From: Candidatus Heimdallarchaeota archaeon
GTDB taxonomy: Archaea > Asgardarchaeota > Heimdallarchaeia > Heimdallarchaeales > Heimdallarchaeaceae
Length of the DNA stretch: 15,692 bases
Direction of reading: 5' to 3'
Assembly: GCA_016840095.1 (NCBI GenBank)
Contig: JAEOSZ010000165.1
Coordinates: forward strand, 1 to 15,692
The notes under the pieces were generated by a model. The model searched no databases and had not been told where the DNA came from. It worked only from the letters and a program-made list of their open reading frames with translations. Made by a program: the position numbers and the translations under genes. Below are positions 3 through 15,692 of the stretch, piece by piece. Position 1 is the first letter of the stretch. Each line of letters starts with the position of its first letter.

Positions 3-497
3 GGACAAAAAGGAAAGGCTGAGAAGGGAACTGGTCTTGCTTTTGAAGATGCTTTAGATCTCTATTTTGATATACGATCGATAAATGAAGTTATAGTTTT
101 GATTCTAACTTATAGTCTAGACAATATCAATACTTTTCAAAACCTTGAGTACTGGCTAAACAGAGCAATTGAACAAGAACTGATAAAAGAGTACACTAAC
201 ATCATTTTATTAGGTACACATCTTGATAAAGAGGACCATGTTATTGTCAAAGATGAGGAAATTGAACAAGGAAAACAATTCATTACTAATCATGTTGAGG
301 ATAGAATTGGTGTTAAGATTGATTTAGATAGAATCCATCCTGTAAAGATATCAAACATGACAAAAGAAGGAATTCCAGAATTTCAAGAAGTTATTAGTAA
401 TTGTTTCTTTGCATCTTTCGATATTCAACAAATAATAGATGAGAATCTGTGTTTAGAACCTCAAGGTAATGAAAATGAAAGCAAAGAGCAAATCTAA
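3..497 (+). CDS. Ras-superfamily small GTPase (Rab/Roc-like), 5'-truncated by window edge
   Basis: Frame 3 is open from position 3 (GQKGKAEKGTGLAFEDALDLYFDIRSINEVIVLILTYSLDNINTFQNLEYWL...), so the track's start at 99 is internal. The initial GQ is probably the end of G3 (DxxGQ). IVLILTYSLDNINTFQNLEYWL matches the Rab-type beta4/alpha3 pattern (ilvyDit...sF.nl..Wl). IILLGTHLD is G4 (THLD at 216-227) and KISNMTKEGIPEF resembles G5. The P-loop lies outside the window. Confidence 0.8.
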   Translation, partial: GQKGKAEKGTGLAFEDALDLYFDIRSINEVIVLILTYSLDNINTFQNLEYWLNRAIEQELIKEYTNIILLGTHLDKEDHVIVKDEEIEQGKQFITNHVEDRIGVKIDLDRIHPVKISNMTKEGIPEFQEVISNCFFASFDIQQIIDENLCLEPQGNENESKEQI

Positions 498-3400
498 TAT
501 TTTTTCCATATTTTTAGTTTTATTATGTTTAAATTCTATAATGTACTATAATTTTGATAAATTCTGGATAGAAGATAATACTACAAATGATCTGCAGGAT
601 TCTGAACTTGGAAACTTGATAGATACTTCTGAAACAATAAATGAATATAATCTTCCAATTTCTAAAGCCATAATTCCAGGTGATGGTAAAACTTATGCTT
701 ATTTTCCACATAGTAATGCTATTTTAGACCCTGAAGGTATTGAGTATGCTTCAGGCGGTAGCAATTTATACCAATGGGAGACTTATGATGAAGTAAAGGA
801 TAAAGGTTTAGACAATGCTTATTTAGATTGGAGATCAGATTGGAGGGATATTAGGGATAGAGATATACATGCTGATGCTTATGCTTGGGATTATAATGCC
901 CCAGATTATTATTATGCTTGGCCATTATCAGCTGATTCTTGGACATTACTAAGAGATTTGTGGAATCCTTGGCAACCATGTAAAATCTTTAGTCCAGTAT
1001 TTACTGAAGAGTACATACTTAGTGGAAAAGTATATTTTCTATATTTCCCTAGAATACCTTTTTCTGGACATGAAGCTGCTTTTTCAGATACTTCTGTAGT
1101 TATCTCTTTTAGATTAAGATTGGCTCTCTATAATCCTTCAACTAACACTTCTACGGATATAACTTCATATGAAACTACACTTCCTGCAACAGGAATGAAT
1201 CAAGAACAAAGATCTGTTTATGCAACAATTCCAGCTCCTGTAACTATTCCGGCTGGATATAGATTGAAATTCTCTGTAGAATATAAGTATGACAAAATCC
1301 CCGCCACTGGTAGTATATTCATGAGAGCAGCAGCTCAAGCTCCTGGAAATAGTTGGTATTGGACAATCAATGATGGTGTATATTCTAACAGTTACCATTT
1401 CTATGATTATGCTGATATGCTTGGGATTCAAGTATATATGAGATCAAATTCCTTTCCAGATATCAATTTATTTGGAGCAACCAATGAAACAGTCTATCAA
1501 GTTGCTCAAAATATGACTATTGATGTTACAGATGGATCAGTTAGCTCTTATCGATGGGATGGAGGAACATGGAATTCTTTTGATAATGACACTCAAACTC
1601 AATTACCCGCTACCCATGGCTGGCACTATTTGGAAGTAAAAGCAAGTGAACCTGAATTTAATAACACAAGAACAACTCTATATCAAATTGGGTATGATAA
1701 TTCTGCTGATAATTTATTTCTTAATAATGCAATAAGCGGAGATTATCTTGACGGAGGAACGGTTCTTAATTTCACAGCTTTTGATGTTATCAATGTAGTT
1801 TATGAATGGGATGCGGATGGAAATTGGACTACTCTAAATAGTCCCTATGATCTTGCTACTCTTTTATTTACGGGATGGCATACTTTAAGAATCAATGCTA
1901 CAGATTATCATGAAACAATTACATATACATATTTATTTTCTTTTGATTCTGACGTACCAGTTATTCTGTTATCAAATGCAGAAAATGATACAATCTATGC
2001 TCCTGGAAAATATCTAGAATTCCTAATTACAGATAATTCTGGAATATCTTCTCTTAATTACAGCTGGGACGGAGGAACTTTGAACGGATGGATTCCTGAT
2101 CCTAGTGATACTTATTCCACCTATCTACCAGAGTTTGGTCCTCATTATCTTGAGATTTTTGCGAGCGATGAATATGGACATCTAGCTTATGCAAATTATA
2201 GTTTCTTTGCTGATGATAGTATCTTCAGTGTTGATTTACTAAATCTCATTGAAGATGCTTATTATCAAGGTAGCAATACTGTAGAACTCAATATACAAAG
2301 AAGCAATGAGACGGTTTACTTCCATTGGGACAGTGATACTGAACAATTAGGAATTCTAGATGGGACTACTCTCACTCTGAATGGAACTGATGCGTTGCCA
2401 ACAGATGAAGGATTACACACTCTTTACATTCGAACATTCAACTTAACTGATCATGAGCAGACTTATGATTTCACATTTAATGTTGACAATACTGCACCAA
2501 CAATAGAAAACTTGGAAATATATGATGGAGGAAGATGGTTCCAAAACACAACTTTCTATCTATCCATATGGGATACTTTTGCAGATAATATAACAGAACT
2601 GTATGTTGACTATTCCATTGATGGAAAAATCTATAGACAACTAAATTATCCTTTTAATTTCTTCTATCCTTACTCTGACGGTCCTCATACTTTGATAATC
2701 AGAGTCAGAGATCTTGCAGGAAATGTTAATTCCACTGAAATAACATTTGTAATAGATTCAACTGCACCTGAATTTGATGTTGCAATAAGTGGTCTAGTAG
2801 ATAGAAGAACTTACGATTTGAATCAATATATATCAACAGGTAATTTATTTGAAATTAGTGTTGATGATATAGATCCTTCTATTACATTGGAATTCAACTG
2901 GAATAAAACAGGATGGGATCTTATTGTTGGCAGAAATTTCACTCTAACACCAAGTATTAACGGTAAAGCTTTGTTTTGGATACGTGCAAATGATTCACTT
3001 GGAAATAGAGGTGAATATTACGAGATAGAGCTGGTATATGATACTACTCCACCTTCTTTGGAGAATGTTTTTCCTGTAGTCAGAAATGTAATCAATGGTC
3101 AAACAGAAATTGATTTTACAATAGGTGATTATACTTTAGAAAACATAGAATTAGTTAGTTATAACTGGGACTATTCTGGTGATTTCTTTGTTAGTTCCTA
3201 TCCTGCTGGTGATTTCAATTTAAATCTGGGTTTTTCTCTCGAATCTCTATATTTAGATTATCATAACAATAGCTTAGCTAATGTTACTTTCTACACTCAA
3301 GATTATTTGGGTAACAATGAAACTTATGTTTTTGAATTCGTAATTGATAACACTCCCCCCTCATTATCTTTGGTTTTTAATGAAACAGGAGAAATAATTC

Positions 3401-5313
3401 TATCTAACACAGATTATCCAGTTCAGGGAGGAACAACTCTTACTTTCAACTCCACCCTAAATCCTGTAGAATCAGATTTTAAGGAACTACTATATTATTG
3501 GGAAGATACACCAATTGATGATCCGTTGAGGTTATTTTCAACTGGATATATTGAAGTTCCTCCAGTAGATGGAATTCATTCTCTAATGGTTGTTCTTAGA
3601 GATATTACTGGGGATAGAGAATCTCCAAACGAAGCAATATATAATATCACTTTTACTGTTGATGATATGTTACTTGAGTATATCTTCCCGCTTGATTTTG
3701 AAGATGATTATAAAACTACTATGATATATAATGACACTTTTGCTTATGTTGTAAACATAACTGATGCAGTTGATGATCAACCGATTCCAGGATTAACATA
3801 TGATATAATCTCTGATGATACATATAACTTGAATGTAACTGTAAATCAAACAGGAAGCTCTGAATATCAAGTTAGTATTCATGCCACAAATGTTACTAAT
3901 GGTTTAGAAACATATATTCATGTGAACTTCTACCATCCTTTTGGTGGTCAGATAGTTAGTTTTTATCCTACAATAAACAAGAAGGAAGGGCAAGTATTTC
4001 TTTTAGAGATGGATGAACAGATAACATATGAAGAAGATTTAGAAATACAACTGTACTTGCAAAATCATCTTGGGGATAATCAGACAGTAACTAAAATCTT
4101 TGTTAATGATAGCTATTCGCAAACAATTGAAGTCATTCATGATTTTGATTTCAATCCTACAACATATATCTGTAATTTCACATATTCTTCATTTAAGATA
4201 GGAATGAAAGGTAATTTCTCATTGGATATAAGTGTGGAATCAGCTTTTTATTTCGCTAATACAACTAATATAGGAGAAACTATTGATTTTGAGATATTGC
4301 CATTAAGTGTTAATATGGTTATTACAGTTTCGAATTATACTATTTTAGAAGGAACTGATGTAAGCATTAGTCTTCTTCTTACATATACTAATGGAACACC
4401 TATACCTTTTAGTTCTGTTGAGGTTATTATCTATATATATCTGAAAAACACAACTGAAACTACACTTAAGCTACAATATGATGATGCAAACGGAACTGAG
4501 GTTTTTCCACTTGAAACCGATTCAAATGGAATCGCAAGTATGGTATTTAATTTGAATTCTTCTGTTAATTATATAATCATACAAGGAACCTATACAGGAT
4601 CTGATACTACTGATTCCTTTACATTTTCTGTTCAAGATCATATTATCACTATACCATTACCTGAAGCAGAAGAATTTCCAAAATGGTTATTGTATACTAT
4701 TATAGCTGGAAGTATAGCATTAGCAGCAATAGTGTCCTTTGTTCTTTACAAAGTAACTAGACCTAAACCCTTTGAAATATTAATGGAAAAAATAACAGAT
4801 GAAGAAATAACTCTAAACTATTCACTCATCTCTCCTGGTGTTGTACTAACTATATTCGACCAAAGAAAAGGTCCTATACCATTGCTGGCAGATCATAGTT
4901 TTACCATAGGTCGATATATTGGTAGAATGAGACAAGGTGTTGATAATTTTATTCTAAAAATTGCAGATCAGGCTTATTCCAGTTTAGGTTTCGAAGAGCA
5001 CGATGCTGGTAGAAGAGTGGGGTCAATAGTTCTTCCAACAGAGAAAATGATAGGATTTGTTCATGGTATACAACTACCTAATAAGATGGCTAGAGGTGGA
5101 TTTGAAAACTTATCTCTAATTGTATTAGCTGATTCTGAAACAGGTAAACTATTACAAAACTATCAAGATTATTTGTATAATGACATTGATGCTCTTATTA
5201 AACTCTTGAAGGAAAAGAAACCTGTCAAAGAAATCAAACAGCAGCTTGAACATATCCGAAAGATGTCTGTAATCGCTATGCTTGCTGGTCAAAAAGTAAA
5301 GGTCAAAGACTGA
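469..5313 (+). CDS. Large receptor-like membrane protein (paralog 1): Ig-like repeat ectodomain, TM helix, cytoplasmic folliculin/SMCR8-like uDENN/longin domain
   Basis: 1614-aa ORF with an alternative start at 475. It has an N-terminal hydrophobic segment (IFSIFLVLLCLNSIMYY), repeated Y/FxWD...GxHxLxI...DxTxP beta-sandwich units and many NxS/T sequons. The TM helix WLLYTIIAGSIALAAIVSFVLY (4684-4749) is followed by basic KVTRPKP, then VVLTIFDQRKGPIPL...FVHGIQLPNKMARGGFENLSLIVLAD. Confidence 0.9.
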   Translation: MKMKAKSKSNIFSIFLVLLCLNSIMYYNFDKFWIEDNTTNDLQDSELGNLIDTSETINEYNLPISKAIIPGDGKTYAYFPHSNAILDPEGIEYASGGSNLYQWETYDEVKDKGLDNAYLDWRSDWRDIRDRDIHADAYAWDYNAPDYYYAWPLSADSWTLLRDLWNPWQPCKIFSPVFTEEYILSGKVYFLYFPRIPFSGHEAAFSDTSVVISFRLRLALYNPSTNTSTDITSYETTLPATGMNQEQRSVYATIPAPVTIPAGYRLKFSVEYKYDKIPATGSIFMRAAAQAPGNSWYWTINDGVYSNSYHFYDYADMLGIQVYMRSNSFPDINLFGATNETVYQVAQNMTIDVTDGSVSSYRWDGGTWNSFDNDTQTQLPATHGWHYLEVKASEPEFNNTRTTLYQIGYDNSADNLFLNNAISGDYLDGGTVLNFTAFDVINVVYEWDADGNWTTLNSPYDLATLLFTGWHTLRINATDYHETITYTYLFSFDSDVPVILLSNAENDTIYAPGKYLEFLITDNSGISSLNYSWDGGTLNGWIPDPSDTYSTYLPEFGPHYLEIFASDEYGHLAYANYSFFADDSIFSVDLLNLIEDAYYQGSNTVELNIQRSNETVYFHWDSDTEQLGILDGTTLTLNGTDALPTDEGLHTLYIRTFNLTDHEQTYDFTFNVDNTAPTIENLEIYDGGRWFQNTTFYLSIWDTFADNITELYVDYSIDGKIYRQLNYPFNFFYPYSDGPHTLIIRVRDLAGNVNSTEITFVIDSTAPEFDVAISGLVDRRTYDLNQYISTGNLFEISVDDIDPSITLEFNWNKTGWDLIVGRNFTLTPSINGKALFWIRANDSLGNRGEYYEIELVYDTTPPSLENVFPVVRNVINGQTEIDFTIGDYTLENIELVSYNWDYSGDFFVSSYPAGDFNLNLGFSLESLYLDYHNNSLANVTFYTQDYLGNNETYVFEFVIDNTPPSLSLVFNETGEIILSNTDYPVQGGTTLTFNSTLNPVESDFKELLYYWEDTPIDDPLRLFSTGYIEVPPVDGIHSLMVVLRDITGDRESPNEAIYNITFTVDDMLLEYIFPLDFEDDYKTTMIYNDTFAYVVNITDAVDDQPIPGLTYDIISDDTYNLNVTVNQTGSSEYQVSIHATNVTNGLETYIHVNFYHPFGGQIVSFYPTINKKEGQVFLLEMDEQITYEEDLEIQLYLQNHLGDNQTVTKIFVNDSYSQTIEVIHDFDFNPTTYICNFTYSSFKIGMKGNFSLDISVESAFYFANTTNIGETIDFEILPLSVNMVITVSNYTILEGTDVSISLLLTYTNGTPIPFSSVEVIIYIYLKNTTETTLKLQYDDANGTEVFPLETDSNGIASMVFNLNSSVNYIIIQGTYTGSDTTDSFTFSVQDHIITIPLPEAEEFPKWLLYTIIAGSIALAAIVSFVLYKVTRPKPFEILMEKITDEEITLNYSLISPGVVLTIFDQRKGPIPLLADHSFTIGRYIGRMRQGVDNFILKIADQAYSSLGFEEHDAGRRVGSIVLPTEKMIGFVHGIQLPNKMARGGFENLSLIVLADSETGKLLQNYQDYLYNDIDALIKLLKEKKPVKEIKQQLEHIRKMSVIAMLAGQKVKVKD
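1453..3666 (+). repeat. About 8 degenerate Ig-like beta-sandwich protein repeats in paralog 1 (equivalents at ~6404-8628 and ~11362-13617)
   Basis: The cores YRWDGG, YEWDAD, YSWDGG, FHWDSD, YSIDGK, FNWNKT, YNWDYS and YYWEDT recur about every 85-110 aa. Most are followed by GxHxLxI/V..xD..G/N and end in a DxTxP-like linker (VDNTAP, IDSTAP, YDTTPP, IDNTPP). Confidence 0.75.
4837..5310 (+). other. Cytoplasmic uDENN/longin domain (FLCN/SMCR8-like) of paralog 1; putative arginine finger R1542 at 5092-5094
   Basis: The beta-hairpin motif LTIFDQRKGPIPL resembles SMCR8 ISEFSEQVGPQPL and FLCN LCHFCELHGP. FVHGIQLPNKMARGGFENLSLIVL resembles SMCR8 [24 protein letters not shown] and FLCN DSLARGFQRWYSI. 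Reference motifs are recalled, not searched. Confidence 0.72.
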
Positions 5314-5464
5314 ACCAAGTACTATTCTTATTACATTTTCAATGACCTTTAGCAATAAATTGATATTATAATATATGATTCTAGTATTACTAAGGGGTAA
5401 AAACCATATGATTGGTTTTCACTAAACCAATTCAACTTGAGATAAATTAGAGTAGGATATAGCT

Positions 5465-8400
5465 ATGAGTAATAAGATTTCATCAGTAACTGCAATGTTT
5501 TTAATTTTCTTATGTTTAAATTCACTAATATATCATCAAATAGAAGATTTATCAGATGATTTAACACGTTTTTCAGACAATTTTCCAGATGTAACAGAAA
5601 TTCTAGATGATTCAGATGATTATGTTCCTAATGAATATTCTCCAAGAATAAAAACAGAAGTTATTGAAGGAAATTACACAACGAGAGCTTTCTTTTCATA
5701 TGATTCTTTTACACCCTCTTTAGATGTAAACGGTTCAGGATATCAATGGACTGAGTATGACGATATTCCAGGTCATGATGCAACAGGATTAGATACTGAA
5801 AGATTCGGTGTAGGGGATATAAGTAATGCAGTAGTACCTCAAATTAATGATGTTTATTATCTAGCTAGGGATTATTGGGGCTCAGGACACAGGGCAATGA
5901 TGTATAGTCCAGTTTTACCTTATAATACCACTGTAGCTGACAAAGTTCATTACATCTTTAATATGCACAGAGATTTGAATGACAATGCTTCTGATTCTCA
6001 ATTTAATGCAATGGATGCAACGTTCCAAATTACTCTGTGGCATTACCATAGTTCAACCCAAGATTCAACAAAAATTACATCAGTAGAGTATCTTCTTCCC
6101 AAAATTAATACTCCAACAGATACTGAGTATTGGGAATGGTTAGAAACAAGTAGTTCTTTCTCTTCTTATACTGTACCTGCAGGAGATAGATTCAAAATAA
6201 CTTATGAAATGAAATATAGTGATGTAAGTGCTACTCTCGGGCATTTCACATTGAATATAATAAATGATGGTCAATATTATGATACAGGTATTTCAGGTAC
6301 TAGTTTAGATTGGAATATAATTGATGGAATTCATTCTAACAGTTATACTATATCGAACACAGATGGTATGTTAGGTATTCAGCTATACATGTTTGAAGAG
6401 AATACACCTGACATTAACCTATATAATGCAGTCAATAATACTGTTTATCAAACTACAAAAAACATGACAATAGATGTGTCTGATGATTCTATCAGTTCTT
6501 ATCGTTGGGATGGAGGTTCTTGGAATTCATTTGAAAATGATACAATAGTATACCTCCCAACTACTCATGGTTGGCATTATCTGGAAATCGAAGCAAAAGG
6601 TCCAGTGTATAATAATACTCGAATAGAATTGTACAAATTTGGGTATGATAGTTCAGTAGATAATATCATTCTTCATAATGCGCTTAGTGGGGATTACTTA
6701 GCAGGAGGTTATGTTCTTAATTTTAGTATTTTTGACGTCGATTCTGTAGTTTATAATTGGAACTGGAACGGTTCTTGGTTTACTTTGACGGATCCATATG
6801 ATATAACAACACCTCAATTTCTAGGATGGCGAGATTTAATTATTAATACTACGGATTTCTATGAAACGAATTCGTATTTGTATACTTTCTTCTTTGATTC
6901 AGATACACCAATAATTACTTTAACAAATGCAGATAATGATACCATTTATGCTCCTGGAAAATATCTAGAGTTCTCAATTACAGATAACACTGGATTAATT
7001 TCATTAAATTATAGTTGGGATTCAGGACCGATTCAAACTTGGTCATCTGATCCAAGTAACACCTATTCTACAAATCTTCCAGGATCAGTAGCTGATCATT
7101 GGTTAGAAATTTTTGTAAGTGATGACTATGGGCATTTTGCTTCTGCTTATTTTGAGTTCTTTACAGATACTGATATTTTCAATGTTGACTTGTTAAATCT
7201 TGTAGAAGATAATTATTATCAGGGAGGGAATACAGTAGAGTTAATTGTTCAAAGAAGCAATACTACTGTATACTTCAAATGGGATAGTGATTCAGAACAA
7301 CTTGGAACATTGGATGGATCATATCTTACATTGAATGGTTCAGATGCTTTACCTTCTTCTGAAGGTCTTCACACTCTCTACATTCGAACATTTAATTTAT
7401 CTTACATTGAGTTCAATTTCAATTTCTCTTTCTGGGTAGATAATACGGATCCGATAATAGAATATCTAGATATTTATGATGGAGGAAGATGGTTCCAGAA
7501 TAAAACCTTCACCATCTCTATTTATGATTACTATACAGATAATTCAACAGAATTAATAGTGGAATATTCATTAGATGGTAAGATCTACCAACCTTTAGAT
7601 TATCCTTTTAATTTCTTCTATCCTTATTTGGATGGTCCTCATACACTAGATATTAGAGCACAAGATTTAGCTGGAAATGTTGGCAATTATACAATAAATT
7701 TCATTATTGATAATACAGCTCCAACTATAGATGTCACATGGGGTGGATTATTGGATAGAATACTAGTAGATGGATATCTATACATACTACCTGATAGTCT
7801 TATTGAAGTTGATATTATTGAAGTTGATCCAACTTACAGAATTGAATATAACTGGAATAACACAGGTTGGATAAATGCTACAATAGGTAGTTTTATCTTA
7901 ACTTCCAGTTTTGATGGTGAAGCTCTTTTGCAGATAAGGGCTAACGATTCCTTGGGTAATAAAGCAGAAATTTTCGAAATTTTACTTGTTTATGATAACA
8001 CTCCTCCTGAAATTTCACTCACTTTTCCAACTACACATTTTGAAATAAATGATCATGCTGATCTTGAATTTGATGTTACTGATTTTACTCAATACAATAC
8101 CGATTCAATAACCTATCAGTGGGATGATGCCATAGGTATCGGTACTTTTGATGTTGCAGATATTGAATCATTTCTTGATGGACATTTCCGCTTAGAACTT
8201 GGTGAATCAGCAAGATTTCTTTATGTTGCTTATGGTTATGAATTAGCTAATTTATCTATAACAGCTGAGGATATCCTTGGGAATAGTGAAACATATAATT
8301 TCACTTTTACAATTGATGTCTCACCTCCATCAATTTCATTGTTTATTAACGAAACAGTGTTGACTCCAATATCACCTGGAAGTGTAAATATAGTTCAAGG

Positions 8401-10294
8401 GGGAACTTCTCTTTGGTTTAATAGTTCTGTTGATTCTGATTTCTATAGTTTTGAATATTATTGGGAATTTACTCCTGTTGATGAAGGTCTTTCTCTATAT
8501 GCACCATGGACTTTTGAGGTACCAAAAGCAGATGGAAATCATTCATTAAAAGTTACTCTTGGAGACTACACTGGACAAGGAACAAGTCCAAACTACATTA
8601 GCTATAATTTTACTTTTATTGTAGATGACATTACGATTGAGTATCTTCTCCCTCTCGATTTTGATGATGGCTATAAAATAGATATGGAGTATAATGATAC
8701 TTTCATCTATGTTGTAAACGTAACTGATGCAAATGATAATGAACCGATTCCAGGTCTTAATTACTTGATCCATTATGATGATACATATAATCTCACAATA
8801 GATGTTGTGTCAATAGGTCCATCAGAATATCAAGTTAGTATTCTTGCCTCTGATGTGACTAATGGGCTTGAAACTTACGTAAATATTCAATTTTTCCAAA
8901 CAGTTGGTGGAGGTCAAACAATTCACTTCTTCCCTACGATTTACAAAAAAGAAGGAGAAATTATTCTTTTAGAAACAGATAATCAGATAGTACATGAAGA
9001 GGATTTGGAAATACAATTATACCTACAAAATGATTTAGGAGAGAATCAGACTGTTTCGAAAGTTTATGTAAATGATAGCTACTCTCAAACACTTAAAGAG
9101 ATTATTGATTTTGATTTCAATGTTTCGACATATATTTGTACATTTAACTATTCCTCCTATGAAATAAATCTCAAAGGGAACTACTCTTTAGATATTAGTG
9201 TAGAATCGAGTTTCTATTTCGCTAATACTTTAGCATCAAATGAAACGATTGACTTTGAGATATTACCACTAGGAATTAATATGATTATTACAGTCTCAAA
9301 TTATACCATTTTAGAAGGAACTGATGTAAGCATCAATTTACAGCTCACATATCTCAATGGAACACCAGTGCCATTCACAGATGTGATAATTACAATATAT
9401 GTGTATCTAAAAAACACCACCACAGAATCAACTTTCATGTTTTCATTTGAAGATGCTAATGGAACTGAAGTTTTCTTATTAGAAACTAATTCTCAAGGAA
9501 GAGCAAGTATGTTATTTAACTTAAACTCTACAGTTGATAATATAGTAATTGAAGGATCATATCTAGGAGGAGACACAACAGATTCTGTTACATTCTCATT
9601 GGAAGAACCTATAGTAACAATACCCATACCTGAAGCTGAGGAATTTCCAAAATGGTTGCTTTATACGTTAATTGCAGGAAGTATAGCTCTGGCAGCGATA
9701 GTTTCTCTTATTATTTACAAAGTAACTAGACCTAAACCCTTTGAAGTATTGATGGAAAAAATAACAGATGAAGAAATAGCTTTAAATTATTCTATAATGT
9801 CTCCTGGTGTTGTACTAACTATATTCGACCAAAGAAAAGGTCCAATTCCTCTTGTTGCTGACCATAGTCTAACTATTGGAAGATACATTGGAAGAATGAC
9901 AATAGGAGTAGAAAATTTCATGCTGAAGATTGCTGATCAAGCTTATTCTAGTTTAGGTTTTGAAGAGCACGATGCTGGAAGGAGAGTAGGATCAATTGTT
10001 CTACCTACCGAAAAAATGATTGGGTTTGTTCATGGAGTCCAACTACCTAATAAGATGGCTAGAGGAGGATTTGAAAACCTATCTCTAATCGTTCTAGCTG
10101 ATTCTGAGTATGGTAATCTTCTTCTTAACTATCAAGAACATATTTACGAAGAAGTTGATTCACTTATTAAACTCTTAAAAGATAAGAAACCTTTGAAGGA
10201 AGTTGAAATTAAATTAGAATCAATACGAAAACTATCTGTAGTAATTATGCTTTCTGCACAAAAAGCGGAGCCTAAGGAGAAGAATGGTAGATAA
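5465..10294 (+). CDS. Large receptor-like membrane protein (paralog 2), same architecture
   Basis: 1609-aa ORF collinear with paralog 1 over its whole length. It has the LCLNS N-terminal segment, Ig-like repeats, a TM helix at 9653-9718 and the conserved cytoplasmic domain with NKMARGG. Confidence 0.9.
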   Translation: MSNKISSVTAMFLIFLCLNSLIYHQIEDLSDDLTRFSDNFPDVTEILDDSDDYVPNEYSPRIKTEVIEGNYTTRAFFSYDSFTPSLDVNGSGYQWTEYDDIPGHDATGLDTERFGVGDISNAVVPQINDVYYLARDYWGSGHRAMMYSPVLPYNTTVADKVHYIFNMHRDLNDNASDSQFNAMDATFQITLWHYHSSTQDSTKITSVEYLLPKINTPTDTEYWEWLETSSSFSSYTVPAGDRFKITYEMKYSDVSATLGHFTLNIINDGQYYDTGISGTSLDWNIIDGIHSNSYTISNTDGMLGIQLYMFEENTPDINLYNAVNNTVYQTTKNMTIDVSDDSISSYRWDGGSWNSFENDTIVYLPTTHGWHYLEIEAKGPVYNNTRIELYKFGYDSSVDNIILHNALSGDYLAGGYVLNFSIFDVDSVVYNWNWNGSWFTLTDPYDITTPQFLGWRDLIINTTDFYETNSYLYTFFFDSDTPIITLTNADNDTIYAPGKYLEFSITDNTGLISLNYSWDSGPIQTWSSDPSNTYSTNLPGSVADHWLEIFVSDDYGHFASAYFEFFTDTDIFNVDLLNLVEDNYYQGGNTVELIVQRSNTTVYFKWDSDSEQLGTLDGSYLTLNGSDALPSSEGLHTLYIRTFNLSYIEFNFNFSFWVDNTDPIIEYLDIYDGGRWFQNKTFTISIYDYYTDNSTELIVEYSLDGKIYQPLDYPFNFFYPYLDGPHTLDIRAQDLAGNVGNYTINFIIDNTAPTIDVTWGGLLDRILVDGYLYILPDSLIEVDIIEVDPTYRIEYNWNNTGWINATIGSFILTSSFDGEALLQIRANDSLGNKAEIFEILLVYDNTPPEISLTFPTTHFEINDHADLEFDVTDFTQYNTDSITYQWDDAIGIGTFDVADIESFLDGHFRLELGESARFLYVAYGYELANLSITAEDILGNSETYNFTFTIDVSPPSISLFINETVLTPISPGSVNIVQGGTSLWFNSSVDSDFYSFEYYWEFTPVDEGLSLYAPWTFEVPKADGNHSLKVTLGDYTGQGTSPNYISYNFTFIVDDITIEYLLPLDFDDGYKIDMEYNDTFIYVVNVTDANDNEPIPGLNYLIHYDDTYNLTIDVVSIGPSEYQVSILASDVTNGLETYVNIQFFQTVGGGQTIHFFPTIYKKEGEIILLETDNQIVHEEDLEIQLYLQNDLGENQTVSKVYVNDSYSQTLKEIIDFDFNVSTYICTFNYSSYEINLKGNYSLDISVESSFYFANTLASNETIDFEILPLGINMIITVSNYTILEGTDVSINLQLTYLNGTPVPFTDVIITIYVYLKNTTTESTFMFSFEDANGTEVFLLETNSQGRASMLFNLNSTVDNIVIEGSYLGGDTTDSVTFSLEEPIVTIPIPEAEEFPKWLLYTLIAGSIALAAIVSLIIYKVTRPKPFEVLMEKITDEEIALNYSIMSPGVVLTIFDQRKGPIPLVADHSLTIGRYIGRMTIGVENFMLKIADQAYSSLGFEEHDAGRRVGSIVLPTEKMIGFVHGVQLPNKMARGGFENLSLIVLADSEYGNLLLNYQEHIYEEVDSLIKLLKDKKPLKEVEIKLESIRKLSVVIMLSAQKAEPKEKNGR
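8144..8229 (+). repeat. 86-nt near-identical segment shared by paralogs 2 and 3 (copy at 13102-13187)
   Basis: acttttgatgttgcagatattgaatc(a/g)tttcttgatggacatttccgcttagaacttggtgaatcagcaagatttctttatgttgc matches at 85 of 86 positions. Confidence 0.9.
9806..10291 (+). other. Cytoplasmic uDENN/longin domain of paralog 2; putative arginine finger R1533 at 10061-10063
   Basis: Same motifs as paralog 1. Confidence 0.72.
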
Positions 10295-10413
10295 GTAACT
10301 CACAGCCTTGAACGATAACTTGATATTTCTTTAATACAAATTTGATATTAAGATAATTATTTAAGGAAAGATAATCCTTTCACTTCCTTAAGGAAATCAG
10401 AAGGCAGATAGAT

Positions 10414-13400
10414 ATGAATAATAACAGTTCAAGATTCATCAGTTTATTTTTAATTCTTTTATGTTTAAATTCTCTTGCATATTATAACTTTCAAGAACCT
10501 ACTAATGAGGAAAATATCTCTGAAAATGAGCTAATTGATTCTTTAGTCCCTGATAATCCTATAGACATTCCAAATGATAATATCTATTCTTCAAAAATAA
10601 AAAAAGTAAAAACACCTGGTGATTTTAAGACTTTTGCTTTCTTCAGTGGTGGGGGAACTGAAGCAGGTAATGATTTGATTAATGATACAGAATATCCTTT
10701 TGAGCCTGACAATAATGACCCTAGTTATTATCCTAACGTAGTTGAATGGGTTACATTTGATGAAGTTAAAGATGGAGATCACATTCCAAAGGAATTGTAT
10801 TGGCGGGCATTGAGTACAGTACCAATTACATGGCCTGCTGATAAGACTGTCTGGCATCATTTAAGGGAAAGAAACTTTCCTGATGAGCCTTCTAAGATGT
10901 TTAGTCCAATCTTTACAGAAGATTGGGAAATAGATGGACGAGTCTTTTATCTAACTTATATAAGAACAAATGATGGAGCATATTTTTCTGAATATCTCGA
11001 TATATATATGAGATTTAGTTTACATCTTTTTAATCCTGTTGACCAGAACAAAACCTTACTAACTTCCACTAATCCCATCTTGTTTTCGGTAAACACTTCT
11101 TTAACACAGAGAACATATAGTTCAGAAATAACAGGTGGACCATATTTAGTCCCTGCTGGTTATAGATTGATATATGATATTGAATTTAGATTCAGCTCTA
11201 ATCCCACTTCTGGTTCTTTGCTTATGTATACTGGTTATCCTGCTGGAGGTCAAACAGGGTCAATGGTTTGGACAATAAACGATCCAACATATGGAAATTC
11301 TTACACTTTAAATAATAATACAAGGATGGCAGGAATCCAATTATATATGCGCTCAAAAGAATATCCTTCTATAGATGTTTACGGTCCAACTAATAATACA
11401 GTTTACCAAACAGCTGAAGATGTGACTATAGATGTGACGAATGGCTCAATAAGTTCTTATCGGTGGGATGGAGGAACTTGGAATTCATTCGATAATATTA
11501 CTCAAACACAATTACCAACAACTCATGGATGGCATAACCTAGAAATAAAAGCTAGTGATCCAGTTTTTAATAATACAGATGTAGTGTTGTACCAGTATGG
11601 GTATGATGCTTCCTCAACTAATATTCAACTGCATAATGCTATAAGTGGAGATTACCTTACGGGAGGTTTTGTGTTAAATTTCAGTGTATATGATGTAGAT
11701 ACGGTAGAATATGAGTGGGATAATAATGGTAGCTGGTTTTTGTTAACGAATCCGTATGATATCACCACGTCTTTGTTTGAAGGATGGTACGATTTACGAA
11801 TTAATACTACGGATTTCTATGAAACAAATTCGTATACTTATACTTTCTTCTTTGATTCAGATACACCAATAATTACATTAACAAATGCAGATAATGATAC
11901 AATCTATGCTCCTGGAAAATATCTAGAGTTCCTAATTACAGATAACACTGGATTAACTTCACTAAATTATAGTTGGGATTCAGGACCGATTCAAACTTGG
12001 TCACCTGATCCAAGTAACACCTATTCAACAAATCTTCCAGGATCAGTAGCTGATCATTGGTTGGAAATTTTTGTAAGTGATGACTATGGGCATTTTGCTT
12101 CTGCCTATTATGAGTTCTTTACTGATACTGATGTATTCAATGTGGATTTACTGAATCTTGTAGAAGATAACTATTACCAAGGTGGTGATACAATAGAGCT
12201 TATTGTTCAAAGAAGTAATACCACTGTATACTTCAACTGGGACAGTGATTCAGAGCAACCTGGAACATTGGATGGATCATATCTTACATTAAATGGTTCT
12301 GATTCCCTCCCTACTTTAGAAGGTCTTCACACTCTTTACATTCGCACTTTTAATTTATCTGATATTGAGTTCAATTTTAATTTCACCTTCTGGGTGGATA
12401 ATACAGCTCCGATAATAAGCAATTTAGATACCTATAATAATGAAAGATTTTTACAAAATCAAATTTTTAATATCTATATTAATGATACATATTCTGATAA
12501 CTCTACTGATTTAATTGTTCAGTACTCTTTAGATGGGAAAATCTACCAATCTCTAACTTATCCTTTTACTTTTGCTTTTCCTTACATAGACGGTCCTCAT
12601 ACACTTGATATAAAGGCTCAAGATCTTGCAGGAAATATAGCTAATTATACAATTACTTTTGTTATTGATAATACTCCCCCAATCTTAAATGTTGTATTAA
12701 ATGGGGAAATAGATAGAACTAGTATTGATGGTCATATCTACATTACACCGAATAGTGTTGTTGATATTGAAATAACTGAGGATGATCTGCTTTATTCTAT
12801 TTATTATAATTGGAATAATACAGGCTGGATAGAGGTTTTTGGAGAAAATTTTACATTTCCTATTTCATCTGTTGGCATAGGAATTCTACAAATAAGAGCT
12901 AATGATTCTTTACAAAATCTAGATGATTCCTATTCAATAAATCTAGTTTATGATGATACTGCACCCAATCTAATTCAAACATTTCCAACAAATAATTTTA
13001 GAATCAATGATCACTCTGATTTGGAATTCGACATAAGTGATTTCACTTTGAAGAATATTCGATCTGTTACATATCAATGGGATGATGTAATAGGAATGGG
13101 AACTTTTGATGTTGCAGATATTGAATCGTTTCTTGATGGACATTTCCGCTTAGAACTTGGTGAATCAGCAAGATTTCTTTATGTTGCATTTGGGTATGAT
13201 TTAGCTAATTTAACAATTACAGCTGAAGATTATGTTGGCAACAGTAACGCAACTACTTTTCATTTCATTATTGATATTACACCTCCACCAATATTCTTGG
13301 AATATCTTAACATATCATGGTCTCCTTTAAACAAAAATGAAAAATATAATCCATATCCTTTAGTTGGCGGAACAGATATAAGATATGATAATACTACAGC

Positions 13401-15273
13401 TTATCTTTACAATGTTTCTTATATACGTTATAAATGGTTGGTAAATACAGATAATGAAACTTCCTCAGATTGGCAAGAACTGAATCTAGATGATCCTTAT
13501 TTAATTATAGGAACAGAAGATGGAAACCACACACTTATCTTTGAAATTTATGACAATACTGGCCAAGGTGGTACTCCAAATCTTAACCAAACATATTACT
13601 ATTTTGTAGTAGATGACATGCGAATTGATTATATTTACCCTACAAATTTTGATAATGGGAATTTCTATAGGATAGAATATAATGATACTTTTACATACAG
13701 AGTTAATATCACAGATCAAGTTGATAAAGAACCAATTCCTGGGCTTCAGTATGAAGTTTATTATGATATTGAACTTAATCTCTCCTGGTCAGTTGTAATA
13801 ATTAACACTACAATTTATGAAGTTACTGTACATGCCACTAATGTAACTAACGGATTAACAACTGCGATTCAAGTATACTTCTATCGGCCTGGAAAAGGAG
13901 GTCAAACGGTTACACTATTTTTAGAGATTATCAAGAAAATAGGAGTACTCAATGTTTTAGAAACATCAACTTCAATTATATATGAAGAGAGTTTGTTTGT
14001 TCAATTATATTTAGAGAATGACATAGGCCAAAACCAAACTATAACTAAGATATATGTAAATGATAATTATACTCAAACGATAAAAGAAATTCTGGATTTT
14101 GAATTCAATGTATCAACATATATTTGTAGTTTTAATTATTCCTCTGTTTGGATTGGATCAAAAGGTAATTTCTCTCTACAAATCTTTGCAGATTCAACTT
14201 TTTACAATGCAAGTACAGAAACAAGTTCATTATTAGAATTTGAGATTAAACCACTCACAGTTCTTCTAACAATAAGTGTTTCAAATTATACAATACTTGA
14301 AGGAACAGATGTAAGCATTAATTTACAGCTCACATATCTCAATGGAACACCAATCATCTTTTCTGATGTAAATCTTACAATATATGTTTATCTAAAGAAT
14401 GTAACAGAGACTGAAGATCCTTTTAAGTTCTCTTTTACCAATTATAATTATACAATATCTGAAAATCTTATAACTAATAACCAAGGTAGAGCTAATACAC
14501 TCTTCACTCTCAATTCTACAATGGATTATATCGAAATAGAAGGAGAATATTATGGAAGTCCAACATTAGATTATGTTTCTTTTGCTTTAGAGAGTCCAGT
14601 AATAACCATTCCATTACCAGAAGCAGAAGAATTTCCAAAATGGTTGCTTTATACACTGATAGCTGGAAGTGTTGCTCTAGCAGCAATAGTTTCATTGATC
14701 ATCTACAGAATAACTAGACCTAAACCTTTCGAAGAATTATTAGAAAAAATAACAGATGAAGAAATACTACAGAATTTCCATTTGATGTCTCCTGGAATCA
14801 TTTTAACTATCTTTGACCAGAGAAAAGGACCTATACCTCTTGTAGGAGATAATAGTCTTGATACGATGAGGTATATAGGAAGAATGACAATAGGTGTAGA
14901 AAATTTTCTACTCAAGATAGCAGATCAAGCTTATTCTAGCTTAGGTTTCGAAGAACATGATACAGGAAGAAGAGTAGGATCAATCATCCTACCAACAGAA
15001 AAGATGATTGGTTTTGTTCATGGTGTTCAGTTGCCTAATAAAATGGCTAGAGGAGGATTTGAAAACTTATCTTTAATTGTATTAGCTGATTCTGAATATG
15101 GTAATCTGCTACTAAATTATCAAGAACACATGTATGAAGACATTGATGAACTATCAAACTTATTGAAAAGCAAAAAACCTCTAAAGGAAATTGAAGATGA
15201 AATAAAGTCTCTCCGTATTCTTTCTGTTAGAATTATGTTAGCCGCTCAAAAGATTGAACTAAAAGAAAAATAG
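10414..15273 (+). CDS. Large receptor-like membrane protein (paralog 3), same architecture
   Basis: 1619-aa ORF collinear with paralogs 1 and 2, with a TM helix at 14641-14706 and the conserved cytoplasmic domain with NKMARGG. Confidence 0.9.
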   Translation: MNNNSSRFISLFLILLCLNSLAYYNFQEPTNEENISENELIDSLVPDNPIDIPNDNIYSSKIKKVKTPGDFKTFAFFSGGGTEAGNDLINDTEYPFEPDNNDPSYYPNVVEWVTFDEVKDGDHIPKELYWRALSTVPITWPADKTVWHHLRERNFPDEPSKMFSPIFTEDWEIDGRVFYLTYIRTNDGAYFSEYLDIYMRFSLHLFNPVDQNKTLLTSTNPILFSVNTSLTQRTYSSEITGGPYLVPAGYRLIYDIEFRFSSNPTSGSLLMYTGYPAGGQTGSMVWTINDPTYGNSYTLNNNTRMAGIQLYMRSKEYPSIDVYGPTNNTVYQTAEDVTIDVTNGSISSYRWDGGTWNSFDNITQTQLPTTHGWHNLEIKASDPVFNNTDVVLYQYGYDASSTNIQLHNAISGDYLTGGFVLNFSVYDVDTVEYEWDNNGSWFLLTNPYDITTSLFEGWYDLRINTTDFYETNSYTYTFFFDSDTPIITLTNADNDTIYAPGKYLEFLITDNTGLTSLNYSWDSGPIQTWSPDPSNTYSTNLPGSVADHWLEIFVSDDYGHFASAYYEFFTDTDVFNVDLLNLVEDNYYQGGDTIELIVQRSNTTVYFNWDSDSEQPGTLDGSYLTLNGSDSLPTLEGLHTLYIRTFNLSDIEFNFNFTFWVDNTAPIISNLDTYNNERFLQNQIFNIYINDTYSDNSTDLIVQYSLDGKIYQSLTYPFTFAFPYIDGPHTLDIKAQDLAGNIANYTITFVIDNTPPILNVVLNGEIDRTSIDGHIYITPNSVVDIEITEDDLLYSIYYNWNNTGWIEVFGENFTFPISSVGIGILQIRANDSLQNLDDSYSINLVYDDTAPNLIQTFPTNNFRINDHSDLEFDISDFTLKNIRSVTYQWDDVIGMGTFDVADIESFLDGHFRLELGESARFLYVAFGYDLANLTITAEDYVGNSNATTFHFIIDITPPPIFLEYLNISWSPLNKNEKYNPYPLVGGTDIRYDNTTAYLYNVSYIRYKWLVNTDNETSSDWQELNLDDPYLIIGTEDGNHTLIFEIYDNTGQGGTPNLNQTYYYFVVDDMRIDYIYPTNFDNGNFYRIEYNDTFTYRVNITDQVDKEPIPGLQYEVYYDIELNLSWSVVIINTTIYEVTVHATNVTNGLTTAIQVYFYRPGKGGQTVTLFLEIIKKIGVLNVLETSTSIIYEESLFVQLYLENDIGQNQTITKIYVNDNYTQTIKEILDFEFNVSTYICSFNYSSVWIGSKGNFSLQIFADSTFYNASTETSSLLEFEIKPLTVLLTISVSNYTILEGTDVSINLQLTYLNGTPIIFSDVNLTIYVYLKNVTETEDPFKFSFTNYNYTISENLITNNQGRANTLFTLNSTMDYIEIEGEYYGSPTLDYVSFALESPVITIPLPEAEEFPKWLLYTLIAGSVALAAIVSLIIYRITRPKPFEELLEKITDEEILQNFHLMSPGIILTIFDQRKGPIPLVGDNSLDTMRYIGRMTIGVENFLLKIADQAYSSLGFEEHDTGRRVGSIILPTEKMIGFVHGVQLPNKMARGGFENLSLIVLADSEYGNLLLNYQEHMYEDIDELSNLLKSKKPLKEIEDEIKSLRILSVRIMLAAQKIELKEK
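14794..15270 (+). other. Cytoplasmic uDENN/longin domain of paralog 3; putative arginine finger R1546 at 15049-15051
   Basis: Same motifs as paralog 1. Confidence 0.72.
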
Positions 15274-15283
15274 TTCTTCAAAA

Positions 15284-15298
15284 TTTCTTTTTCTTCCC
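15284..15298 (+). terminator. Possible archaeal-type T-rich terminator after paralog 3
   Basis: The pyrimidine/T tract tttctttttcttccc begins about 10 nt after the stop at 15273. Confidence 0.35.
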
Positions 15299-15330
15299 GC
15301 CTTTATCGATAGCTTATTAATTCATTTTTC

Positions 15331-15355
15331 TATAAATATCATAAAGGTTATAACC
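15331..15355 (+). promoter_or_regulatory. Possible TATA-box promoter of the Rag-like gene with an adjacent palindrome
   Basis: TATAAATA at 15331-15338 and the perfect palindrome GGTTATAACC at 15346-15355 (containing TTATAA) lie 21-45 nt upstream of ATG 15376. The AT-rich background makes this weak. Confidence 0.3.
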
Positions 15356-15375
15356 ACTGTATTAGAGGCATCAAT

Positions 15376-15692
15376 ATGTCCTATCTCTTCGATGAACTTT
15401 CTGGAAAAACTGATGGAGCTCCAGCTGTAGAGGATAAAATACTTCTCATGGGACTTCAAGCTGCTGGCAAAACTGCTATAAAAGATGTTGTCTTCTTCAA
15501 TAAAGAACCTGGAGAAGTCAACGGTTACATGGCTACAGTACATTATCAAAGACAATTCATTGACGAAGAACAAACAAGCATGATTATAGATTCTGGAGGA
15601 CAGGAATCATATTGGAATGAAGCAGTTACACATTTTCGTCACCTTGTCTTTTCAAATGTTAAGCTTCTAATCTGGATTGTTGATGTTACTAA
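15376..15692 (+). CDS. Rag/Gtr1-like small GTPase, 3'-truncated by window edge (not in ORF track)
   Basis: Manual translation: MSYLFDELSGKTDGAPAVEDKILLMGLQAAGKTAIKDVVFFNKEPGEVNGYMATVHYQRQFIDEEQTSMIIDSGGQESYWNEAVTHFRHLVFSNVKLLIWIVDVT. G1 is GLQAAGKT (15451-15474), the G2 Thr is in MAT and G3 is DSGGQ (15589-15603). The spacing and the VFSNVKLLIWIVDV segment parallel RagA/Gtr1 (KVLLMGKSGSGKTS...GAT...DCGGQ...IFRNVEVLIYVFDV, recalled). Confidence 0.88.
   Translation, partial: MSYLFDELSGKTDGAPAVEDKILLMGLQAAGKTAIKDVVFFNKEPGEVNGYMATVHYQRQFIDEEQTSMIIDSGGQESYWNEAVTHFRHLVFSNVKLLIWIVDVT

Follow-up and report, generated by a model that had tools for sequence, protein, structure and literature searches.

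Folliculin (FLCN) and FNIP (Lst7-Lst4 in yeast) form the GTPase-activating protein (GAP) for RagC/D (Gtr2). FLCN is soluble, has a C-terminal DENN domain, works as a heterodimer with FNIP and is recruited to lysosomes. The complexes C9orf72-SMCR8 (CSW), which acts on Arf/Rab GTPases, and GATOR1 with its NPRL2-NPRL3 pair belong to the same class of longin GAPs; they share the GP motif and the arginine finger, and both are soluble multi-subunit assemblies with DENN domains and without a transmembrane (TM) form. The catalytic arginine finger of the eukaryotic GAP longins is R164 in FLCN and R147 in SMCR8. Here, we describe a gene cassette on a 15,692-nucleotide (nt) contig of a Candidatus Heimdallarchaeota archaeon (JAEOSZ010000165.1 of assembly GCA_016840095.1, forward strand), which as a whole is called the window. 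It encodes three tandem surface proteins of about 1600 amino acids (aa) that apparently end in a longin of this class, next to a Ras-like and a Rag-like GTPase. Architecture, fold, motifs, synteny and gene fusions lead us to propose, with a probability of roughly 0.6, that these proteins are membrane-anchored folliculin-class regulators, most likely GAPs, of an adjacent pair of Rag-like GTPases.

Receptors with a cytoplasmic GAP domain are known in the form of plexins. These semaphorin receptors are single-pass proteins with a large, immunoglobulin (Ig)-type ectodomain and a Rap/Ras GAP domain in the cytoplasm, and they are activated by dimerization. They are functional analogues only; their GAP domain has a RasGAP-like fold and not a longin fold, they are confined to eukaryotes, and no homology exists to the proteins described here. 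Among prokaryotes, the MglB-MglA system likewise consists of a small GTPase with a dimeric regulator of roadblock/longin type encoded beside it. MglB, however, is a soluble roadblock protein without a receptor part and without an arginine finger of this type, and it matches the present domain only weakly (Z 6.9).

Asgard longins with GP motif and arginine (PMC12290439) as well as Asgard Rag-like GTPases and longin-GTPase fusions (PMC10933270) are already published. The GP motif is specific to the GAP longins SMCR8, C9orf72, FLCN and NPRL2, in which it spatially adjoins the arginine finger; it occurs in a class of Asgard longins and is absent from non-GAP longins (PMC12290439). These "Folliculin/SMCR8 longin domain-containing" proteins and the fusions of Loki type (PMC10933270) are homologous by profile to the domain described here and have the FDxxxGP and ARG motifs in common with it. 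They differ in that they are soluble and 236-500 aa long, with an N-terminal longin to which a Rag or Ras G domain is frequently joined, whereas in the receptors the longin forms the C-terminus, preceded by a giant ectodomain and a TM helix, and separate neighboring genes encode the Rag-like proteins. Which GTPases serve GP-motif Asgard longins as partners, Rag/Gtr or Arf-related ones, was left as an open question (PMC12290439). In strain MK-D1, GTPase genes generally do not share operons with longin genes, and from the way in which the genome of the cultured Loki strain is laid out, regulators cannot be assigned to GTPases (PMC10933270). A membrane-spanning longin is mentioned in neither of these two papers, and the word transmembrane is absent from PMC12290439; neither the receptor form nor this synteny was described in the literature searched.

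Gene content of the window

The window carries exactly five open reading frames (ORFs) of at least 100 aa, all of them on the plus strand and none on the other. In 5' to 3' order, they encode the 3' part of a Ras-like GTPase, three tandem receptors (A, B and C) and the first 105 aa of a Rag-like GTPase (RagL). Both GTPase genes are incomplete because the window is an entire contig. The following features were assigned:

3..497, plus strand: Ras-like GTPase (Ras5), 3' part, 164 aa, open at the 5' end; Pfam Ras 23.3 bits against a cut-off of 21.6
469..5313, plus strand: receptor A, 1614 aa; hydrophobic signal or anchor at the N-terminus, then variable head, repeats, TM helix and longin tail
4684..4752, plus strand: TM helix of receptor A, aa 1406-1428, by hydropathy scan
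4756..5310, plus strand: predicted cytoplasmic tail of receptor A (P0006), 185 aa; putative FLCN/SMCR8-class longin with two long C-terminal helices
4855..4881, plus strand: GP motif FDQRKGPIP of tail A, in the beta1-beta2 hairpin
5092..5094, plus strand: Arg113 of tail A (R1542 of receptor A), candidate arginine finger, in the motif ARGGFEN
5465..10294, plus strand: receptor B, 1609 aa; TM helix 9653-9721, tail 9725-10291, candidate arginine finger codon 10061-10063
10414..15273, plus strand: receptor C, 1619 aa; TM helix 14641-14709, tail 14713-15270, candidate arginine finger codon 15049-15051
15376..15690, plus strand: RagL, first 105 aa, open at the 3' end; G1 GLQAAGKT, G3 DSGGQ, Pfam Gtr1_RagA

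The Ras-like ORF and the start of receptor A overlap by 29 nt. ORFs of 1600 aa in DNA of 32% GC are not a product of chance. A first-pass annotation of this DNA, made from its letters, had named five co-oriented genes in the order small GTPase, three receptors and Rag-like GTPase and had supposed an Asgard archaeal origin; the ORF list reproduced the former, and the source genome belongs to the Heimdall group.

Fold and motifs of the cytoplasmic tail

A model of the tail was built with AlphaFold2 (AF2) from a 21-row alignment. It reached a predicted local distance difference test (pLDDT) score of 90.2 and a predicted template modeling score of 0.87 and displayed a longin topology (beta-beta-alpha-beta-beta-beta-alpha). 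The approximately 60 residues after the longin core were modeled as two long helices (H137-152 and H157-184), with which the receptor protein ends. A Foldseek search with this model returned the Lokiarchaeal longin 8yqg first, followed by entries of FLCN-FNIP2, GATOR1, Lst4, SEA and C9orf72-SMCR8. Alignment with VIA-align gave the highest Z scores for FLCN (8dhb_J) and the Loki longin 8yqg (12.9 each), then for Lst4 (12.1), FLCN 6nzd_H (11.8), the C9orf72-SMCR8 entries (11.2-11.7) and GATOR1 with its NPRL2-type chains (9.7). Ykt6, adaptin sigma, TRAPP and other longins scored 9.6 or less, and roadblock proteins including LAMTOR, Ego3 and MglB 6.9-7.7.

In an alignment of 41 tails with identities down to 21%, residues G28, F34, D35, Q36, G39, P40, P42, D71, F79, R113 and G114 are invariant. 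G39 and P40 open the second strand of the model (strands E28-35 and E39-47), and R113 is located in the beta4-beta5 loop. Furthermore, 91 tail ORFs taken from 80 public loci were surveyed: 90 contain the FDQxxGPxP motif, 89 are directly preceded by a TM helix, and the arginine is kept in every complete tail. Judged by the reported match ranges, the arginines of the tail and of a soluble Asgard homologue both fall at about position 60 of the Pfam Folliculin profile. Fold, GP motif and conserved arginine together support the assignment of the modeled tails to the FLCN/SMCR8 class of longins.

The FLCN/SMCR8 likeness had been part of the first-pass annotation, and these three features bear it out; the Foldseek search proposed there indeed placed FLCN, Lst4, GATOR1 and C9orf72-SMCR8 among the top matches. 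The domain had also been called a longin/uDENN module, of which the longin stands, but not the uDENN: the longin is followed by C-terminal helices only, with no DENN core. With FLCN-FNIP, the receptors share the longin fold (Z 12.9 and 11.8), the GP hairpin, the arginine of the ARG motif, a membrane as the predicted site of action and the association with Rag-family GTPases with probable roadblock C-terminal domains. In contrast to FLCN, the tail consists of a longin plus helices at the C-terminus of a single-pass protein of 1600 aa, and the cassette contains no FNIP-like gene.

Relatives of the tail and longin-Rag fusions

A phmmer search of 1.84 billion representative sequences yielded 57 relatives of the tail only, all of them with the domain at the extreme C-terminus. 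These are larger proteins of up to 2352 aa, and in the short members a TM helix directly precedes the domain. A tail profile was also searched against 400 genomes from the whole phylum. Strong matches (E <1e-40) were confined to the window's own class (families f1, f5, f6 and f7) and one genome of family f32, whose class is not given. Family f5 has the tail in 21 of its 22 genomes, in up to nine copies. In the f5 genomes G057, G070, G074 and G075, the tail ends open frames of 8821, 8857, 10,069 and 10,431 aa, so that the receptor family includes some of the largest archaeal proteins.

Weaker matches elsewhere in the phylum were soluble proteins, 236-480 aa in length, that carry FDxxxGP and ARG motifs close to the N-terminus. 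The tail profile matched soluble Asgard longins with E values of 1e-7 to 1e-14, and two of these pass the Pfam Folliculin cut-off (27.7 and 28.3 bits). In several soluble Asgard longins, the fusion partner is a Gtr1_RagA G domain (E 2e-20 and 2e-24); in one (L100), it is a Ras domain. Examples of the former from other Asgard classes, 469-480 aa in length, are L103:1438-2880 and L101:1486-2895, both on the plus strand. Every genome of family f20 (135 of 135) contained a full-length longin-Rag fusion, frequently in two paralogous copies, as did 14 of 14 genomes of f19 and 4 of 4 of f21. Because of this covalent fusion, the longin family is tied to Rag-type G domains independently of gene order. 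As a separate observation, one f14 genome carries at least two, probably three, tandem genes of soluble Folliculin-type longins (L104, L106).

Conserved gene neighborhood

The receptor was found in 18 of 24 genomes of the same genus; in all 18, RagL follows 80-130 nt downstream on the same strand. The Ras-like gene is located upstream of one to three receptors. A scan of public genomes showed the order receptor then RagL in 24 of 25 related loci with a downstream flank; 17 of the related loci extend to a convergent second Rag-like gene (RagS) and 14 to the Ras-like gene. The conserved cassette comprises a Ras-like gene, one to three receptors, the long Rag-like gene and the convergent short one, and its outer flanks differ. 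The genome of the window, 3.44 Mb in size, holds only four strongly Rag-like ORFs, and chance adjacency therefore amounts to about 1 in 500 per locus.

Distant receptors with tails 24-30% identical came from metagenome-assembled genomes (MAGs) labeled Hodarchaeota, Heimdallarchaeota and others. The only neighbor family that recurs beside them is again that of the Rag-like genes, which were found at 16 of 50 loci and in four other arrangements, several of which contain two paired Rag-like genes. Close relatives do not count as independent observations; the different gene arrangements do. The adjacency to a GTPase gene, for which conservation among relatives had been named as a check, is thus kept in the close loci and recurs in distant ones. 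The single Rag-like neighbor seen in the window, on the other hand, was right in kind and wrong in number: the putative partner is a pair, and the second gene lies outside the window on contig C136. Receptor and RagL are both absent from six genomes of the same genus; we do not count this as evidence, since the two genes are adjacent and assembly gaps remove both. In two of these six genomes, the Ras-like orthologue is still present on short contigs.

A soluble protein of 260-358 aa adjoins the Rag-like pairs of distant receptor loci (L057:9863-10645 (-), L068:11998-13017 (-), L072:11552-12577 (+), L074, L079 and L081). It carries an N-terminal "T[IV]FED.GP" hairpin and no ARG motif, and the source genome itself contains a homologue (G000:C165:12642-13412 (+)). 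Pfam gave no match; a low-confidence Atlas model was nearest to clusters of SMCR8, C9orf72, FLCN/SMCR8-uDENN and DENN, all with a TM-score <0.5. This protein may be a non-catalytic partner longin, and we regard it as a lead only.

GTPases of the cassette

The RagL fragment of the window matches Pfam Gtr1_RagA with 56.7 bits (E 3e-15, cut-off 22), in agreement with its previous designation as Rag-like; the full RagL orthologue reached E 6e-26 and RagS E 9e-36. The best PDB matches of both are RagA/Gtr1, and both contain an HKxD G4 motif and DxGGQ. RagL orthologues are 549-686 aa long, and their family match covers the G domain only. Inspection by eye revealed behind it a roadblock-like region, a long stretch of low complexity rich in Pro, Glu and Val, and a conserved C-terminal motif. 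In the 651-aa orthologue L016:16467-18422, about 200 residues rich in Pro, Glu, Val and Ala precede a C-terminal motif of approximately 60 aa (GxxFSAxDIxNFAxFLVQKK...).

Contig C136 (locus L019, 3.35 kb) of the same MAG starts within the RagL low-complexity stretch. It carries the end of RagL (frame 2 of positions 1-790) and, convergent to it, RagS (416 aa, 793-2043 (-), 85% identical to the orthologue in genome G001); hence, the cassette extends beyond the window. The assembly break between C160, which is the window, and C136 probably falls into the low-complexity region. RagS matched human RagA with E 2e-22 when the single sequence was searched and with E 2.8e-41 when a profile was used. In the profile alignments, Gtr1 is covered up to residue 290 and LokiRagM up to residue 321, so that RagS apparently includes a C-terminal roadblock domain. 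RagL profile matches end at the G domain, and its C-terminal domain is probably also of roadblock type. The RagS orthologue L016:18425-19654 (-), 409 aa in length, extends at its C-terminus by about 100 further residues, whose CxxC ... HEC pattern resembles that of a small zinc-binding module; no such extension occurs in eukaryotic Rags.

The Ras-like gene scores barely above the Pfam Ras cut-off and only with its second half; the P-loop end is cut off by the contig end. Full-length orthologues of 239-275 aa contain GDGxxGKT, [IL][ML]PGQ and THxD (G4) motifs, in which the switch II Gln is kept and the Asp of DxxG is replaced by Ile. An AF2 model from 14 close orthologues reached a pLDDT of 47.6 and was too poor for a fold search. 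The first description of this gene product as a small GTPase is in keeping with its Ras-likeness; the protein is, however, divergent and confined to the cassette of this lineage. Elsewhere in the source genome, two tandem Ras-like paralogues of 220 and 231 aa (G000:C122:64093-65537 (-), locus L108), which are also barely above the Pfam Ras cut-off, adjoin proteins of 215 and 308 aa without a family.

Prediction of a complex between the tail (alignment A2) and the RagL G domain (alignment A3) gave scores of 0.13 and 0.18 against a mark of 0.32, which speak neither for nor against binding.

Receptor proteins

Each receptor has an N-terminal hydrophobic segment, 44-51 N-x-S/T sequons, two to three cysteines and one strong TM helix about 205 aa from the C-terminus. 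Basic residues directly follow this helix (KVTRPKP in A), and therefore a type I topology with a cytoplasmic tail is predicted. All three proteins, putative surface glycoproteins, have the plan of a receptor, namely an ectodomain with a membrane-distal variable head and a stalk of Ig-like repeats, a single TM helix and a cytoplasmic domain of regulatory type. The ectodomain matched only Ig-like Big_13 and OmpL47-type barrels in Pfam and NCBIfam. In receptor A, a variable head (about aa 30-280) is followed by Ig-like "YxWD" repeats. A search of the ESM Atlas with the variable head (aa 30-340) returned no score of at least 0.9 and no family, and neither Pfam, NCBIfam nor the ESM Atlas gave a clue to a ligand.

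Identity between the paralogues A, B and C amounts to 13-31% over the first approximately 280 residues, 40-70% in the middle and 77-90% in the tail; hence, the head is variable and the cytoplasmic module conserved, as in receptor-like evolution. Over about 200 residues (approximately 6870-7470 and 11820-12420; alignment aa 469-668), receptors B and C share 90-94% identity, compared with 57% overall, which suggests recent gene conversion between the tandem copies. Three is the largest copy number observed in such an array; relatives have one or two. A fourth paralogue of 1581 aa is encoded elsewhere in the genome (G000:C74:2223-6968 (-), locus L109); its tail is 55% identical and keeps GP motif and arginine. 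Its neighbors on the 9.4-kb contig are a hydrolase-like ORF, a DUF4332 protein and a PadR regulator; no GTPase gene is present there.

Source and assembly of the contig

The window is the whole of contig C160 in a marine-sediment Heimdallarchaeota MAG of 3.44 Mb (165 contigs, 89% complete, 7.8% contamination, about 32% GC). The nearest public contigs carry the label Candidatus Heimdallarchaeota, including AB_125, and the orthologous proteins are annotated as hypothetical at NCBI. All public runs listed with the window sequence are marine-sediment metagenomes; only DNA contigs and no RNA were among them.

The junctions from B to C and from C to RagL are bridged by independent Logan contigs from two runs; none of the listed contigs clearly bridges the junction from A to B (5313-5465). 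One Logan contig of run X2 joins position 4744 to 9714, thereby skipping 4969 nt at 32 shared letters, and would put the ectodomain of receptor A onto the tail of receptor B. Either the sample contains a strain variant with two copies, or the contig follows a graph path across the conserved TM/tail repeat.

A motif of about 23 nt resembling GCCTTTAnCGATAACTTGATATT occurs approximately 10-30 nt past the receptor stop codons, at 5345-5367, 10305-10327 and, in looser form, about 15299-15321 (two matches within three mismatches against zero expected by chance). Possibly it belongs to the unit that was duplicated, or it is a regulatory signal common to the copies. We make no claim for a regulatory element, as the motif is kept in one orthologous locus only (L032).

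Discussion

The domain encoded at the end of the three receptors would be held at the inner face of the membrane and act there on RagL and RagS encoded next door. GAP activity is the most likely mode: R113 and the GP hairpin would complete the active site of the GTPase, as Arg164 of FLCN does for RagC. The ectodomain would set the place or the time of this action, for example by ligand- or contact-driven clustering of the tails; clustering is proposed because all three eukaryotic longin GAPs work as longin dimers. Binding itself, GAP activity as opposed to another kind of regulation, the choice of RagL, RagS or the Ras-like GTPase as substrate and outside-in signaling are what we infer from the observations.

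Several points weigh against this proposal. Every eukaryotic GAP longin is accompanied by a DENN domain, and none follows the tail longin, neither in the model nor up to the end of the sequence; a partner longin gene is not encoded in the cassette either. Pfam Folliculin (PF11704) matched the tail below threshold (E 0.13, 12.5 bits against a cut-off of 23.3), and among PDB sequences a single tail and two tail profiles found no FLCN, SMCR8 or NPRL2 chains, only chance helical matches; at the level of sequence, the link to the Folliculin family is transitive only, via the soluble Asgard longins. Furthermore, no GTPase gene is located within the available flank at about two thirds of the distant receptor loci, and the same holds for a second group of receptor paralogues with the same tail (G000:C74, L045-L048). 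At locus L035 (3744-8576), the receptor is split into ORFs of 603 and 981 aa, and the Rag-like pair is missing despite 8 kb of flank; this may reflect decay of the whole cassette or a misassembly. Additionally, most longin/DENN proteins are guanine nucleotide exchange factors (GEFs) or platforms and not GAPs, and giant surface proteins with Ig repeats can be purely adhesive or structural.

It is possible, though rather unlikely, that the tail is not an enzyme and instead recruits the Rag-like pair as a Ragulator-like anchor or a GEF-type platform. Signals may then flow inside-out, with the GTPases controlling placement, clustering or turnover of the giant proteins. Longin and roadblock domains are general platforms for GTPases, and most longin/DENN modules are GEFs (PMC3747258). 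In line with this, the tail model also matches the roadblock proteins LAMTOR, Ego3 and MglB (Z 6.9-7.7), the roadblock-type C-termini of RagS and probably RagL could pair with the tail, and the cassette holds no obvious gene for a downstream effector. However, GAP-class longins scored clearly higher (Z 11-13) than roadblock proteins and generic longins (9.6 or less), and strict invariance of GP hairpin and arginine across tails of 21-30% identity is what would be expected of a catalytic site; moreover, the GP and Arg motifs are absent from non-GAP longins (PMC12290439).

By analogy with SMCR8-C9orf72, which acts on GTPases of Arf/Rab type, the substrate could be the upstream Ras-like GTPase, or both kinds, with the Rag-like pair acting downstream or in parallel; we consider this improbable. 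The overlap of 29 nt between the Ras-like gene and receptor A, together with gaps of 2-14 nt in L021 and L016, suggests co-translation, and the Ras-like gene is kept in 14 related loci. Retention of P-loop and switch II Gln along with loss of the DxxG Asp may even mean an unusual catalysis that needs help. But the gene is confined to the cassette of this lineage, and distant receptor loci pair with Rag-like genes only; the fusions in other Asgards mostly join a longin to a Rag G domain and just once (L100) to Ras; and with a model of pLDDT 47.6 the fold of the protein is unconfirmed. Least probable by our estimate is that there is no functional coupling and that the receptors are adhesins or envelope proteins with a tail for sorting or anchoring in a gene order inherited within one clade, as could be argued from the many same-tail paralogues without a nearby GTPase gene, the missing hint of a ligand and the non-independence of close relatives, but not easily reconciled with a pairing that is found again in five or more gene arrangements where tails are only 24-30% identical, with covalent fusion in other Asgard classes, and with a background of about four Rag-like genes per 3.4 Mb.

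Regulation of the Rag-like pair by a folliculin-class tail at the membrane is therefore the reading that we prefer. The first-pass annotation knew of no characterized receptor with this architecture. Receptor-GAPs do occur in eukaryotes, namely plexins, though with a GAP fold of another kind. If the tail is a GAP, the proteins described here would be the first prokaryotic receptor-GAPs.

The cassette represents a specific, synteny-conserved pairing of an FLCN-type longin with a Rag-like pair, and the longin-Rag fusions found elsewhere back this pairing. It also reveals a new context for longins, namely the cytoplasmic tail of giant single-pass surface proteins. Should the tail act as a GAP, a domain of 185 aa and small GTPases would offer an expressible model of a pre-eukaryotic folliculin-Rag switch.

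A further idea, which we regard as doubtful, is that the cassette represents the ancestral form of the FLCN/GATOR1-Rag axis, in which a plasma-membrane receptor with a longin tail served as the GAP of a Rag heterodimer. If so, Rag signaling would have begun as surface sensing of contact or nutrients in an archaeal ancestor and would have reached the lysosome only once membranes were internalized. Homo- or heterodimeric tails of tandem receptors would then prefigure the pairs FLCN-FNIP, NPRL2-NPRL3 and SMCR8-C9orf72. As it stands, the cassette provides a testable candidate for an archaeal forerunner of the Rag switch that is attached to the cell surface.

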